Assembly (NCBI GenBank): GCA_963827275.1
Contig: CAWHAA010000004.1
Span: 32,001-96,000 of the forward strand
DNA from: an uncultured Spirochaetota bacterium
GTDB taxonomy: Bacteria; Spirochaetota; UBA4802; UBA5550
Direction of reading: 5' to 3'
DNA length: 64,000 nucleotides
This document shows, one piece after another, positions 33,001 through 42,000 of the stretch (its first letter is position 1; the number at the start of each line of letters is the position of its first letter). Position numbers: made by a program.

Positions 33001-36000
33001 TACTGTTCGGAGCAGTGAATGAAACCGCATGCTGCATGGAATGCGATGCCCAGGAGCGTGATGACAATGGCGTACACATTTTACCAGGTTGAAAAGAAGC
33101 CGCCGATTGCGTGGGTGTATCTGAACAGGCCGGAAAAGAAGAACGCGATGAACGCGCCGGCGTGGACGGAGCTGATACCGATCATGAAGGAGCTGGATGA
33201 GGATGATGAGGTGCGCGCCGTCATTCTCGCCGGACAGGGCTCGATCTTCTGCGGCGGCATAGACCTCATCGGAATAATACCGGAGCTGCCGGAGCTGACT
33301 GAAAAGGAGCAGAAGGGCGGGACCAAGCTCAGCCTCTACGGCAAGATCCTCAAGATGCAGGAGGGGCTCTCCTGCATCGAGCGGTGCCGGAAGCCGGTCA
33401 TTGCGGCGGTGCACGGAAAGTGCATCGGCGCGGGGCTCGACATGATCTGCGCCTGTGACATACGCCTCTGCACGGATGACGCGGAGTTTTCCCTGCGCGA
33501 GGCCGCGGTCGCGATCGTGGCCGACATGGGGGTGCTCCAGCGGATCTCGAACATCGTGGGGCAGGGTGTTGCCCGCGAGCTGGCCTACACGGCGAAGAAT
33601 ATTTCCGCCAAACGCGCCCTCGCGGTCAACCTTGTCAATGAAACATTCAAGGACCGGGACGGGCTCATGAACGCGGCGGAGGAGATGGCCCGGGAGATCG
33701 CGGCCAATTCACCTCTTGCCGTAAGGGCGGCGAAGATGGTGCTTAACCAGATGTTCGCTGCACGGGTGCATGACAGCCTGATGTTCAACGCCGCGCTGAG
33801 CACGTGTATCATCCCGTCGAACGACCTGTATGAAGCGGTGGGCGCGTTCAGCCAGAAGCGCAAGCCGTCGTTTACCGGGTCATGAGAACCGGCGCCGGTC
33901 GCGGTGACAAAATTTTCTTGATTATATTGGGTGCATCGATTACGATGCATCATTCCGGGATATGAAAGGATATGAAGATCACGATCAAACAATACCATGG
34001 CAGGTTCCGGCTTAAATTCACCGAGAACTATTATCTTTTCAGGAAGAAATTCCTGAAGCTGTGGGACAGCTTTGTGGAGAAGGGCCATGAAAAGATGACC
34101 GTCATGTTCATCCCGCACAATGAGCAGAAGATATTCAATTTCCAGATTTCAAAATTCACCATCCTCTTTTTCCTGTTCCTGTTCCTGGTCGTCCTGGTGA
34201 CGTCGTCATACGCGGTGATCCGCAACGCGGCGGTGAAGCGCGAGGAGCAGCGTCTCCTCATGACCTACGAGGACATACGTTCGCACCTGCTGCGGTTCGA
34301 GAAGCTGACCAACAGCGTGTCCGAGCTGGTCGATGAAATGAAGCCGGACGTGGAGGAGCTGTACGAGCTCACCGCGGGCCCCGAGGAGCTTGACCGGATA
34401 TGGGACCTCGACGAGGTCGACCGGAAGGACTACGCCGAGCTGAAGAAGCTCCAGAACATCCTTCCCGAGGAGATCTTCACCATCAAGGACCTGCAGAAGA
34501 ACATCGTCTGCACCACGAACACGATCAAGACCGTCAAGAATTTCGTTGACGTGCGGAGCAAGGTGGTTCGGGACACCCCGTCCCTCGTGCCGAATTCCGG
34601 GCACATCACGTCCCTGTTCGGCTGGCGGCGGTCGCCCTTCGGACACGGGCGGGACTTCCATTCGGGGATCGATATCGCGGCCCCCGGCGGCATGGAGATC
34701 CGGGCGACGGCGCCGGGGGTGATCGTATCGGCCGGCTGGGGAGGCGGGTACGGATGGATGGTCCGGATACAGCACAAGTACGGTTTTGAATCGGTCTACG
34801 CGCACTGCATGAGGGTCGCCGTCTCACACGGCCAGAGCGTCAAGAAGGGCGAGGTCATCGGCTATGTGGGCCAGACAGGCAACGCCACCGGGAACCACTG
34901 CCACTACGAAATACGGCTCGGCAACATTCCGATAAATCCATATCCATACATGAGCAGGATATGGTGATCATAGCAATGGTCACCGTGCCGCGGTATGCTA
35001 AAGCAGCTGTCCACCTATATACGGTTTGCGCTGATGGCTGGGACGCTTACCGCCATAGTGATCGCCAATTCCAAGGAGCAGGGCTTTCGTAACAGGCTGC
35101 TCGACTATATCGACGACAATGCCGTGGCCGAGGAGCCGGCGCTCATCATGACCGATCCGTCGGATGATGAGACCCTCGCCGATACCTACGATTCCCTTGC
35201 ATACCATCCCGGCGACTGGGATGATTACATTCTCTACCCGCGCTACCGGGACCTTGAAAACAGGGAGAAGCGCCTGTCCCTGTACGAAAGCAGCGATGTC
35301 AATATCATCACCTATGGCTCCCTGAACCTTGAGCTCAGCTACGGCCAGTCGTTTTTTACAAAAAAAAGGTACCAGCAGATCGAGATGGACAAGGCGGAAT
35401 CCCAGCTGATAAAGTCGGGATTTCATCCGAAGCAGGAGCTCCAGCTGCACATCGAGGGAACGATCGGCGACCGCATGACGATTTATGTCGACCATGACAG
35501 CCGGAAGAAAGACAACCATTACCTCTTTAAATACCGCGCGCTGCGCGACGACGAATTGATCCGCGAGCTGAACGCCGGGGAGATAGACATCAACTTCCAG
35601 GGATCGAAATACGCCGTCTATGACAACAACACCGCGAAAGGACTCGGGGTCGATCTCACCCTCCAGAAAAACCGGTTCACGTTCAGGGCCTTCGGGAGCG
35701 TCACCCAGGGGACCACGGAGATGGAGATCTTCCGCGGGAATTCCATGCCCGGCAATATCAAGCTGTCGGAATTCCAGTATGTCAGGGGCGTGTACTACCA
35801 GATCGAGCCGCTGCTGCGCTATGGGATCAACCTGGGGCCGCCGCCCCCTCCCTTCCCGGCCAACTATGAGCGAAGGCCGGTCAATATTAACCCGTCCGGC
35901 TTTGAGCTGTGGATGGACGACCAGGACCCCTACAACAACCAGAATGCGACCGAGCTGCCGACCTACGGCGGCTTTTATAACAGGCTCCAGGCAGGGACCG

Positions 36001-39000: not shown

Positions 39001-42000
39001 AATTCCTCTTCAACATGCTTTTCAAAGAGGAAGAGATAAAGCGCACGTCCTACCAGATGGGCATCGAGGACCTGATGGCCGTGGCCTCGGTGCTGGAGAT
39101 TGAAAAGCGTCAGCGAACCGAGGCCCGCTATAACCTTGAATACCTGCACCGCTTCTTCTATCTGCGGCCTTCTATCGCGGCGGGCTCGGAAGAGGTGGTG
39201 ACCTGGCTCGGGAAGTCGGCGGTGAACAACACGGACATCTCCTACAATATAAACGGCGACTACCATTTTCCCTTCGTGTACGGCAAGAATTGCAAGTTCG
39301 TCGAGCGGAACAAGGCGTACAGCCTCTCCGCGGGACTTAACGATTTCGGCTATGTCGCTCCGGGGTGTAAGGTGGATATCCAGTATTTTGAAAACAGGTT
39401 CCGCGATTATAACCTCGTGAATGTTCCCCTCTACGGGTTCAGCAGGGCGAAGGACGCCCGGACGCTTGTTTCCACGAACATCGACCTCCCCGTCTACCTG
39501 CACAAGGTCAGGCTGCTGAACTTCATCAGGACCTTTTCCTTTAACTATAACCGCTCCCTCTATTTTACGGAGACCAATGTCCCCTACGAGAAGGAGCAGA
39601 AGGACCCGTATGACGAAAAATACGGCATCACGCGGACAGTGGGCAGGCTGGCCAGCGCAGGCTTCAACATGTTCAGCTATTTTCCCTTCTGCTTTTTCAC
39701 CGGCAGGCGCAACTATGCCAGGGGCCGCGATTACGTCTTCTCCACCATGAACGTCCCCGTCCTGTTCGCGGACGGAACGACCGCCTCGGAGTACAACAAT
39801 AATCTGCGGCTCCTTGATAATTTTACTGCGAACTGGTCTGCCGACCTCGGCAAGGTGACCATCACGTCCAATGCAGGGCTGCACCAGATCTGCGAGCGCC
39901 AGAACATCTACGGGATCCCCGCCCAGACGGTCACCGCGGGCTTTGAGGTCAACCTGAATTTTGACCTGATGAAGCTCATTCGTGCATGGATCTTCAGGCC
40001 GAACAGGGAGGGATTGCCCTACCATGCCGCGTTCCTCACGGCAGGCTACAAGTTCGATACCAACATGCTCGTCACGCAGAACATACAGGAGGACGTGCAT
40101 GCGCCGCGCATCGGCCTCAGCTTCAAACGCGACCGGGCGAGCGTCTCCATCGAGTTTGGCGTGGAGGTAAAAAAGAAGGTAAGCGAATTCTTTATATCAT
40201 ACAACCCCCTGAACCGGTCGTTCAGGGACCAGATATACATCGACAATATGCCGTATAACCTTTTCTACCGCGATAGCGACTACGGCTACACCCTCTCAGT
40301 TCCTTTTCGAGACGGACGTGATGTGGATATACAAGTTCTTTTCCCTCTTTTACCGGCTCACCGCGTTCCCGATCTACACGCTTGAATATTCGATGAAGAT
40401 CAACCGGTATGACTACCTGGTCACCGCGTCGCCCGAGCCGTATGACCTTCACCTGATAAGCAGCAAGCTCACCCTCGACCTTCACAAGAACATCCAGGGC
40501 GGGCTCAGCGCGAAGGTGGCGGTGGAGCAGTACCGGAACAGGAAGCGGCGCTGGCTGAACATGGCACTGAACAACCAGGAGTACCAGAGGGAGATAGTGT
40601 CATTCGAGGTGGGCGCCAACTTTACCCTCCTGTTCTGATACAGGACGCCCGGCCGGCGTCAGGAGAAATAGTCCCGCACCTTCTTTTTCAGGGTGTGGTA
40701 AAACCCCTTGAGCTCGGTCAGGTAGATGTCGTCCCTGCTCTGCTTCAGGAGCTCAACCGTTGCCGAAGAAATGACGCTCCAGAGAAGCGCGCGGTCGGGA
40801 CAGTGGCCGATATAATCAAGGGTAATCTGGTAGGCGCCCTTGAATCTGCGCGCACCCCCCTCGGGGGTGATGCTCTTTATGATGCCGTCAAGGTTCATGG
40901 ATTCGCTGGAGGTGCGAAATGATGCGTCCAGGGTGAGATGGCGGCCCTCGCTTTCCTCGATTGCCGCGAATACGATGACCGTCGTGTACATCTCGCGCTT
41001 GAGGAGAAAGTCCGCTATGAGCGCAATGCTGTCCCTGTCGGCGGCGTCGACATACCCGGCCCCGGCTATCAGCCAGTCCTTGTACGCCACCTTGCTCTGG
41101 ATCGCGGTTTTCAGGAGCCGCAGCGTCGCCGGGGAGAGAGGGGTGGCGCTGATCCGGTTGAAGAGCTCATGGTCGGAATACCGTGAAAGAAAATCCATCG
41201 CTTCGTAGTCAATCTGTCCTGCGCGGGAGTACTTGTCGGTATCGGTGTAAATACCGTACATGAGCGCGGTCGCCAGCATCCTCATCACCTGCGGTTCCGG
41301 CGCCGGGGACATCTGTCTCACAAGGAATGCCATGATCGTGCAGGTTGAGCCGGCGTCGGTGTTGCGCAGCGTAAACCCGGCCGGGGTCTCTTCTTCGGGA
41401 GGATCATGGTGGTCGATGTGCGCGGCGCAGGGGAGAGTCACCCTCGCTTCGGGCAGTGCGGCCGACTGGTGATCGGTGACGATATACGCGTCATGGCGCC
41501 GGTAGTCCGGGTAGTCGGGCGAGAGGTGCAGCGGTATCCCGAGCAGGTCCACGAAGGCCCGGTTTTCCGGGAGCGAGATCTTTTTCGCTGCGACAATCGT
41601 GGCGGAAACGCCGAGCGCACGGCAGATGACGCTCATCGCAAATGATGATGCGATGGCGTCCGGATCGGGCGAGCCCTTGACAATGATCAGGATGTTCCGG
41701 TATTTTGTGATCGCCGCCGCGAGCGCCTGCCAGGAAGCTTCCACCCCGTCCCTCACTTGTATCTGAACAGTATGACGCTGACGTCGTTGATCTGCTTCTT
41801 GTCGCCGGTGAACCTGTTCAGGTCGTCATAGAGTATGCGGGCCAGTTCAGACGGGCCCCTGCTGCGGCCGCTCTTGAGGACATTCCTGACGCGGTCGAGC
41901 CCGTAGGTCTGTCCCTGCGGGTTTATGGAGGAGATCAGGCCGTCGGAGCAGAGGATGCCGATGCTGCCCGGCGCCAGCCGGATTGTCTTCGACTCGTACC

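Follow-up and report, generated by a model that had tools for sequence, protein, structure and literature searches.

The pore gene and its surroundings

The window, the whole stretch of 64,000 nucleotides from an uncultured Spirochaetota bacterium that was analysed and whose positions are used for the pore locus and its parts, contains the gene for a giant outer-membrane barrel of the SprA/Sov type (34995..40638, + strand). The intact gene encodes 1,880 amino acids, which the assembly splits, as the genome-wide survey's note had it, into an ORF of 1,796 amino acids (34995-40385, +) and a tail of 111 amino acids in a different frame that ends at 40638. The split arises from an extra single base (40299..40300, +), which is missing from all three public runs that cover the site, a fourth run having no coverage of 40299-40300. 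As an intact protein with 99.5% identity (P0002) also exists, the frameshift is an assembly error and not, as had been considered, a lesion in the population, and a pseudogene is ruled out. The protein begins with a probable Sec signal peptide (34995..35072, +), read by eye from a basic start and a hydrophobic helix without lipobox cysteine, and the structure model places a helix at residues 2-26.

Directly upstream on the same strand lies a gene for an M23 peptidase (33972..34967, +), which also precedes the pore gene in the copy on contig C11 and in G284 and G085, both other genomes of the family that were examined. Downstream, a convergent DHH-family gene (40659..41756, - strand) is conserved in position in the family, without any sign that it is part of the system. 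No neighbour genes are common to the pore across the whole phylum, the sets being local; in some lineages they are envelope genes such as M23 peptidases, a BamA-like gene (Thermospira) and other barrels.

The copy on contig C11, 63% identical to the pore protein, had been listed as a second, 64%-identical genomic copy. Throughout its length C11 runs colinear with C4:63-122 kb, protein identity being ~45-90% for the most part, and 20 of its 36 long ORFs are duplicated, compared with 6/137 on C9, 7/200 on C1 and 15/43 on C3. A usual paralogue is therefore rejected and C11 is probably a contaminant.

Homology and fold in comparison with SprA

On repetition, the T9SS translocon model TIGR04189 gave exactly the score reported before (E 5.8e-26, 90.1 bits in three stretches, below the 200-bit cut), and again no Pfam family was above its cut on the pore protein, PF14349 giving no match. 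In the same search series relatives form a continuous range of TIGR04189 scores that reaches 265 and 700 bits. PF27067 has been precomputed on close relatives of the protein, and phage tail-tube/DUF2460 matches at residues 503-578, which are below the cut-offs, were discarded, this segment being probably a small beta-sandwich.

With the family profile as query, SprA is the sole match in the PDB (E 8.4e-41), and the best four Foldseek matches of both folded halves are all SprA, with best E-values of 4e-41 and 9e-26. The VIA alignments comprise 969 residues (SprA 133-1538) and 986 residues (SprA 860-2401), although the structural matches are loose with an rmsd of 6-9 Å (VIA) and a Foldseek TM-score, normalised by query, of 0.52-0.60. 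While the Z-score of the C-terminal half to SprA (15.7) is tied with unrelated barrels (BtuB, 15.5), those align over 375-509 residues as opposed to 917-986 for SprA. The homology noted earlier is thus not only borne out but extended into the C-terminal half, and the pore protein is confirmed as a SprA/Sov homologue along its whole length.

The barrel is predicted to start with strands 1-7 (residues ~105-247; 35307..35735, +), six of them assigned by DSSP and the third deduced from how the chain aligns with SprA 166-262, in a region where model confidence is low. A first large insertion (residues ~248-579; 35736..36731, +) matching the first cap region of SprA is followed by predicted strands 8-11 (residues 580-669; 36732..37001, +), which hold the best TIGR04189 stretch, and by a second large insertion with CBM-like beta-sandwiches (residues ~670-1163; 37002..38483, +), which matches SprA ~860-1500. 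The remainder (38484..40635, +) holds strands 12-36, a number based on 25 long strands in the model of the C11 copy, and ends in phenylalanine, so that the predicted strands amount to 36, 35 assigned on two separate half-models and one inferred by alignment.

Distribution of the pore in Spirochaetota

The family is wider than previously stated, being present in at least 148 of 301 genomes of the phylum, a count that is a lower bound and includes a shortened form in Treponema denticola. The absence from three large families that had been reported does not hold for family f20 (Treponema), where 36/61 genomes match with a nearer profile. No pore was found in family f14 (0/53) or in genus g83 (0/6, including one 1.1-Mb genome), which we take to be Leptospira and the T. 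pallidum group, organisms that do have surface lipoproteins. In family f18 a single genome is positive, and an extension of the pore family into f18 was abandoned after a search with that positive member as query had retrieved just 1/34. TP0245 was equally dismissed as a T. pallidum orthologue, with no relevant paper found and no pore in g83. Cultured carriers are T. denticola, S. africana, Thermospira aquatica, Gracilinema caldarium and Rarispira pelagica.

Spirochaetal members form their own clade in the tree (39/39 labelled, support 0.99). Some are shortened to 1,140-1,600 amino acids, and the T. denticola pore misses ~400 profile positions of the second insertion and lacks the second cap. 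As the profile of the Spirochaetia members did not match SprA in the PDB (best E 0.27), their link to SprA runs via the comparison with the family profile (E 8e-53, 895 columns) and an Atlas lead of 0.90 to an SprA_N cluster. Cumulatively, homology and fold over the full length support the earlier proposal of a SprA-family pore outside the FCB group.

Carrier barrels and tailed cargo

Three PorV-like barrels are encoded in this genome, in which pore, carriers and cargo are scattered. The barrel at C6:303728-304924 belongs to the UPF0164 / PorV-PorQ family and scores 123.9 bits with the PorV model NF033709 (cut 90); the narrower PorV models PF19572 and NF033710 are not passed, a search of the genome with PF19572 giving no match. 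A second barrel (C5:29995-31290) carries an N-terminal CTD-like domain, and the third (C2:190484-193115) is fused to CTD-like repeats, which lie on the periplasmic side, and to OmpA, matching Leptospira Lsa66 over its FlgD-Ig/OmpA part with E 1e-74. TIGR04131 is above cut for the internal repeats of this fusion only, while the genome search with this model found none above cut. Among 78 genomes with a PorV-family match above cut, 76 also hold the pore; matches at E<=1e-5 also occur in 48 genomes scored pore-negative at that stage.

The survey's note had also stated that C-terminal sorting domains are missing, which is true for TIGR04183 (0 matches in this genome) but not for a tail profile, which detects one terminal CTD-like domain, the only one found here. 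It ends a conserved secreted protein of ~800-890 amino acids (C1:232377-234883), which is rich in T/S/G/N, has an fn3-like region and a type-A-CTD-like end, and was found in 50/61 genomes of the order. A profile built from other genomes alone recovers this tail (E 1.5e-11, with 7.6 for the best of the reversed-sequence controls), and the tail also has a match to the CTD portion of PorU (E 4e-5). Against TIGR04183 it reaches 13.7 bits, which does not pass the cut of 23, and it resembles the FlgD Ig domain as well. In a PDB search with the tail profile the PorU CTD was the best match without being significant (E 0.11), and with the cargo as query no lead in the Atlas reached 0.9. Single-sequence searches of this genome with the tail and the barrel are too insensitive. 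A near-terminal lysine (K100) is invariant in 18/18 aligned tails. The cargo gene has a large, divergently oriented lipoprotein-like gene as its neighbour in genomes G000, G171 and G085.

Tails from PorV-rich spirochaetes pass TIGR04183 in 14 of 18 cases, and all 19 fetched tail matches, T. denticola included, form the very C-terminal end of large proteins. The passengers bear fn3, PKD, CBM, LVIVD and Big domains, which are typical of surface proteins. A tailed cargo gene is located directly upstream of a PorV-like gene in 6/8 loci read; in a reading of 19 tail loci, no PorV-like gene was found near the tail at any of them.

Across the phylum, gain and loss of the pore go along with gain and loss of tailed cargo. 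In genus g89, a strong tail is present in 11/11 pore-positive versus 0/5 pore-negative genomes, and a prediction fixed in advance held in 22/23 genomes (9/9 expected positives, 13/14 expected negatives). Since kin genomes are not independent, the co-occurrence counts overstate the association. In family f14 the pore and the tail are both absent (0/53), whereas f18 shows weak tail matches in 26/37 genomes with the pore in one.

Motor, PorU and other components

The claim that PorV-like barrels occur without a detectable GldL/GldM motor agrees with these results. GldM was found in 0/29 genomes, including four KSB1-like ones, and was above cut in 0/5 in a further search; GldN was found in 0/5 genomes and GldL above cut in 0/5, with no control genome exceeding the cut either. 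Genome G000 is 92% complete, which bears on these motor and ring negatives. PorU was above cut in 0/25 spirochaete genomes compared with 4/4 KSB1-like controls, the spirochaete matches listed covering only the C-terminal ~150 positions of the model. Five stators of the MotA/ExbB family are encoded in the genome, none tied to the pore system by evidence.

A complete T9SS-like machine, with GldLM/KN-like parts present but too divergent for the profiles from Bacteroidota, is nevertheless conceivable: as the pore scores below its own family cut-off, partner genes could be missed likewise, and a positive control is lacking for GldM and GldN. We consider it unlikely, as GldM is equally missing from the four KSB1-like genomes, in which both PorU and the SprA relative are far above cut-off, and as sets of SprA, PorV and Plug without motor are described for Ignavibacterium and Melioribacter in the consulted passages of a published account (PMC11705866).

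A proposed export route

The co-variation of pore, carrier barrels and tailed cargo without a type 9 motor being found points to an undescribed spirochaete export route. In our judgement it is probably a reduced, motor-less type-9-like core that exports CTD-tagged surface proteins, not lipoproteins. Other signals than those of the T9SS, as had been envisaged, do not agree with partners that look T9SS-like, namely a PorV-family barrel above cut-off and type-A-CTD-like tails that co-vary with the pore.

Equally doubtful as a complete divergent machine is that the SprA fold has been retained for a role in outer-membrane biogenesis or uptake, for example in aiding PorV/FadL-like barrels or in handling glycans, with the tailed proteins being periplasmic. 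The envelope-gene neighbours in some lineages, the periplasmic CTD-like repeats of the PorV-OmpA fusion and the T. denticola pore without second cap would fit such a role, but passengers with domains typical of surface proteins speak against it, and both the pairing of cargo and PorV genes and the location of the tails at the protein end mirror the T9SS. Highly improbable is the export of surface lipoproteins, proposed earlier, or of another cargo class by signals unrelated to the T9SS tail, since, despite the single tailed cargo found here for so large a pore and the divergent lipoprotein-like gene next to that of the cargo, no result ties the pore to lipoproteins, the pore tracks the tailed cargo within a genus and it was not found in f14 or g83, our presumed Leptospira and T. 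pallidum group. Moreover, lipoprotein flipping in Borrelia is assigned to an LptD homologue in the consulted part of a preprint (bioRxiv 10.1101/2022.12.21.521298).

For the motor-less export of tailed proteins, F. johnsoniae provides the analogy: the cargo would reach the periplasm via Sec, fold and enter the barrel from below, its tail would attach to the loops of a PorV-like carrier that sits at a lateral opening of the pore, and carrier and cargo would leave the pore sideways. As no PorU sortase was found, the cargo is probably retained at the surface by the carrier. Release, which is GldLM-dependent in Bacteroidota, would have to occur by itself or to draw on a different motor; according to the passages seen of a report on F. 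johnsoniae, removal of the motor traps the cargo in the pore (PMC10994853), so that an unexplained mechanism of release is required if the motor is absent. In this organism the number of cargoes served would be one or very few; other spirochaetes have dozens.

Origin and comparison with known systems

In the consulted passages of reviews up to October 2026, the T9SS is limited to Bacteroidota or the FCB group and requires a proton-driven motor (PMC13721041, PMC4793230, PMC10994853), and a motor-less SprA-type export system of spirochaetes was not found in the literature. Chances seem even that a minimal type-9-like system of pore, carrier and tailed cargo, without Gld rotary motor and PorU, derives from the common ancestor of spirochaetes and persists in about half of the phylum, with a T. 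denticola pore that lacks one cap domain exporting a tailed surface protein of ~1,900 amino acids. If true, the core of translocon, carrier and tail would be older than the Bacteroidota T9SS and the motor a later addition. With such a core of pore, carrier and tail in much of Spirochaetota and no motor found, it must be asked how release of the cargo proceeds in the absence of GldLM; the core is also a candidate route for large surface proteins in these bacteria.

The barrels suited for comparison are the PorV/FadL-like (UPF0164) proteins of Treponema pallidum and Brachyspira pilosicoli and Leptospira Lsa66; unlike in this genome, no pore was found in what we assume to be the groups of these organisms. 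As far as the accessible passages go, the Brachyspira paper interprets its UPF0164 barrel as a transporter of the FadL type, the T. pallidum paper does no more than label five barrels PorV/FadL-like, and neither names a spirochaetal SprA.

The Ignavibacterium and Melioribacter sets and the KSB1-like genomes G361-G364 likewise pair a translocon with a carrier while no Gld motor is detectable, but are, unlike spirochaetes, inside the FCB group, and the KSB1-like genomes keep PorU. With respect to the T9SS translocon itself, SprA of Flavobacterium johnsoniae (PDB 6H3I, 6H3J, 8GL6, 8GL8) and Sov of Porphyromonas gingivalis, the spirochaetal pore differs in being ~520 amino acids shorter, with 11-18% identity to SprA in structural alignments and a TIGR04189 score below cut-off, and its system differs in the lack of any PorU or GldL/M/N found and in one cargo in this genome instead of dozens. 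On the other hand, its homology is colinear over SprA ~133 to 2401, the 7+4+25 barrel strands predicted for it, its two large insertions and its C-terminal phenylalanine match SprA, and, as in the SprA/Sov T9SS, PorV-family barrels and type-A-like tails occur in the same genomes as the pore.

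Sequence and predicted fold of the pore

Judged by sequence profiles and predicted fold, the giant outer-membrane protein at window 34995-40638 (+), 1,880 aa when intact, is a homologue of the translocon SprA/Sov from type IX secretion systems (T9SS) over its entire length. The distant homology proposed in the genome-wide survey's note is thus borne out and extended to the C-terminal half: the protein matches TIGR04189 (Sov/SprA) at E 5.8e-26 with 90.1 bits, below the cut of 200 bits, a Pfam scan of it gave no family above cut-off, and a 43-sequence profile found two matches among 177,635 PDB sequences, both SprA, at E 8.4e-41. 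The fold was predicted as two halves, window residues 1-1200 (pLDDT 80.5) and residues 678-1867 of the copy on contig C11 (pLDDT 88.7), chosen since the frame of the window copy is interrupted. The best four Foldseek matches of the N-terminal half are SprA (E 4e-41 to 6e-28; next 1e-7), with 969 residues matched to SprA 133-1538, and for the C-terminal half the SprA matches range from E 9e-26 to 1e-20 (next 3e-8), with 986 residues matched to SprA 860-2401; these alignments are loose (rmsd 6-9 A), the first strand block is of low confidence, and the Z-score of the C-terminal half against SprA is level with that of TonB-dependent barrels. Across the two half-models the barrel strands form blocks of 7, 4 and 25 with two large insertions between them, 35 being assigned by DSSP and one inferred from the alignment, and SprA itself has a 36-strand barrel (PMC10994853, available part).

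The gene lies in two frames, as the note had stated, an ORF of 1,796 aa (window 34995-40385, +) and a 111-aa tail with a C-terminal Phe (to window 40638, +), but the suspected lesion did not hold up: because one base at 40299-40300 is absent from 3/3 covering public runs (four mapped, three spanning the place), the frameshift most likely arose in the assembly. An intact 1,880-aa database protein is 99.5% identical to the window pore across the first 1,771 residues. Further genes of this genome look frameshifted (the cargo gene, the PorV-OmpA fusion and the secA and dxs regions, on C1, C2, C5 and C6), consistent with a noisy assembly.

The copy on C11 that the note had named does exist (63% identical), yet probably not as an ordinary paralogue. 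The 47-kb contig is colinear along its full length with C4:63-122 kb, mostly at ~45-90% protein identity, and 20/36 of its long ORFs have a twin of at least 55% identity elsewhere in the genome (C9, 6/137; C1, 7/200; C3, 15/43). Relatives within the order carry a single full-length copy, or a single gene split across two contigs, and the C11 protein groups in the clade of the genus's own copies. C11 is read as the contig of a co-binned relative; the whole of C11, and probably C3 too, look like contaminant contigs. At window 46941-63805 lies an unusual locus of fatty-acid or polyketide-like type, in which radical SAM, AMP-binding, acyl-transferase, ketoacyl-synthase and dehydratase/ACPS genes are clustered.

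Distribution in the phylum

An order-centred profile detects the pore in 111/301 Spirochaetota genomes; a query from a family f29 member and then a 22-sequence Spirochaetia profile raise the total to at least 148/301, the latter having been used in 84 genome searches (61 + 23) only. The Spirochaetia profile is linked with the first at E 8e-53 across 895 columns. Exact look-ups place members in Treponema denticola (1,139 aa, its second insertion short by ~400 profile positions), T. saccharophilum, Gracilinema caldarium, Spirochaeta africana, Rarispira pelagica and Thermospira aquatica; each is named 'hypothetical' but for the S. africana protein, automatically called 'Cell surface protein SprA' in UniProt. 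Profile searches found no pore in family f14 (0/53) or genus g83 (0/6), and in family f18 a single genome is positive (1/37; 1/34 in a second search). In a tree of 88 sequences and 454 columns of the N-terminal region, 39/39 labelled spirochaetal pores and 15 unlabelled sequences form one clade (support 0.99), with the SprA proteins of KSB1 type and 30 further relatives without a label falling outside it; an exhaustive search returned 631 clusters at E<=0.001, shading gradually into true SprA.

Several Treponema pores are in-frame with an upstream dinB-like gene (1,890-2,090 aa; loci L123, L124, L126, L134, L138, L139, in family f20), while in other Treponema genomes the two are adjacent but separate. 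At six loci (L042, L043, L051, L128, L130, L135) two barrel-looking genes of ~450 aa and ~700 aa come after the pore gene; both are candidates for further partners, the larger with a LipL45/Lsa33-like N-terminal region. In three families (L048, L051, L058) the pore gene directly follows flgG/flgJ-type flagellar genes.

Carriers and tailed cargo

The PorV-like proteins reported for this genome were confirmed as three barrels. The first (C6:303728-304924) reaches 123.9 bits against the PorV/PorQ family (cut 90), matches UPF0164 and has a short helical C-terminal extension. The second (C5:29995-31290; L038:7996-9291) combines signal peptide, CTD-like domain and, after these, the barrel in one chain, a carrier joined to its own tail-like domain. 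The third, frameshifted (C2:190484-193115; locus L040) and intact at 880 aa in genome G284 (L229:5526-8168), unites a barrel, CTD-like repeats of the FlgD-Ig type and a peptidoglycan-binding OmpA domain; its soluble part matches Leptospira Lsa66, and it could tether carrier or pore to the wall.

The note's absence of T9SS C-terminal sorting domains is challenged by a secreted protein at C1:232377-234883 (frameshifted here, 805 aa in G171, present in 50/61 genomes of the order), which ends in a CTD-like domain. This tail matches a profile of 35 tails from other genomes at E 1.5e-11, as the sole terminal match among 54,136 six-frame pieces (best reversed control E 7.6), and the CTD part of PorU at E 4e-5, while scoring 13.7 bits against TIGR04183, below the cut of 23. 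A Lys six residues before the end is invariant in 18/18 tails, and the same Lys is described for type A CTDs (PMC10994853, in the part available). In three genomes a divergent, lipoprotein-like Big_5 gene of ~1,210-1,240 aa adjoins the tailed cargo gene (L037:8952-12587, L227:1471-5181, L228:1294-5028).

Across the phylum, the pore occurs in 76/78 genomes with a PorV-family match above cut; at E<=1e-5 such matches occur in 133/138 pore-positive genomes then known, but also in 48 others. In five pore-positive genomes where PorV-like genes abound, each genome has 18-46 FlgD-Ig matches, and in 6/8 loci read (30 returned) the gene directly upstream of the PorV-like one encodes a tailed cargo. The TIGR04183 cut is passed by 14/18 cargo tails from PorV-rich spirochaetes; the passengers of these cargoes carry fn3, PKD, CBM or LVIVD domains. 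In seven Spirochaetota genomes (G004, G006, G019, G033, G045, G056, G066) PorV-family candidates number 26-90, and there are dozens of tailed proteins, which reach lengths of up to 6,105 aa.

A 30-tail profile matches in 184/301 phylum genomes and in 0/53 of f14. All 19 strong matches examined sit at the extreme C-terminus, some of them on giant proteins, as in T. denticola (1,915 aa), S. africana and G. caldarium; no PorV-like gene was found near these 19 loci. The prediction, fixed beforehand, that a pore should appear where a strong tail occurs without a known pore, and none where the tail is weak or missing, was correct in 9/9 expected positives and 13/14 expected negatives, the one failure being an 87%-complete draft. 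In genus g89 a strong tail is present in 11/11 pore-positive versus 0/5 pore-negative genomes, which are kin and so not independent. Family f18, with weak tail matches in 26/37 genomes and the pore nearly absent, speaks against a strict link.

A putative reduced secretion core

The pore is probably part of a reduced T9SS core. Beyond the observed fold, parts and co-distribution, we infer the binding, export and energy source of the system: cargo would be exported by Sec, a PorV-like carrier would capture its tail within the pore, and after lateral exit the cargo would be retained on the carrier, because no sortase is present. PorU, listed as unsearched in the note, was above cut in 0/25 spirochaete genomes, with 4/4 KSB1-like (FCB-group) controls positive.

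The chief problem for the reduced core is release without a motor, which in F. johnsoniae is required for release (PMC10994853, accessible part). A divergent, unrecognised motor is an unlikely alternative. In searches that had no positive control, GldM was found in 0/29 genomes, GldN in 0/5 and GldL above cut in 0/5, in line with the missing GldL/GldM of the note. No link to the pore was found for the five MotA/ExbB-family genes of this genome (flagellar MotAB, one ExbBD-TonB and three others) or for its flagellar rod genes. Equally doubtful is a role of the pore in biogenesis or uptake. Export of lipoproteins is more improbable still, as in Borrelia an LptD homologue already flips them (bioRxiv 10.1101/2022.12.21.521298, available part).

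Comparison with known systems

New here are the C-terminal half of the SprA homology, the pore's extension to Treponema and its joint loss with tailed cargo, which was tested. No description of a spirochaetal SprA was found in the literature, subscription papers and bioRxiv supplements being outside the scope; in their accessible parts, two spirochaete papers mention PorV/FadL-like barrels only, and PMC12204202 contains no mention of SprA. T9SS is described as confined to Bacteroidota (PMC4793230, PMC13721041, available parts). Because the pore stays below the TIGR04189 cut and PorU was not found above cut, the spirochaetal system is not classed as T9SS, yet most plausibly works like a T9SS core. 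A precedent is given by Ignavibacterium and Melioribacter, which possess SprA, PorV and Plug without the other parts (PMC11705866, available part), but inside the FCB group.
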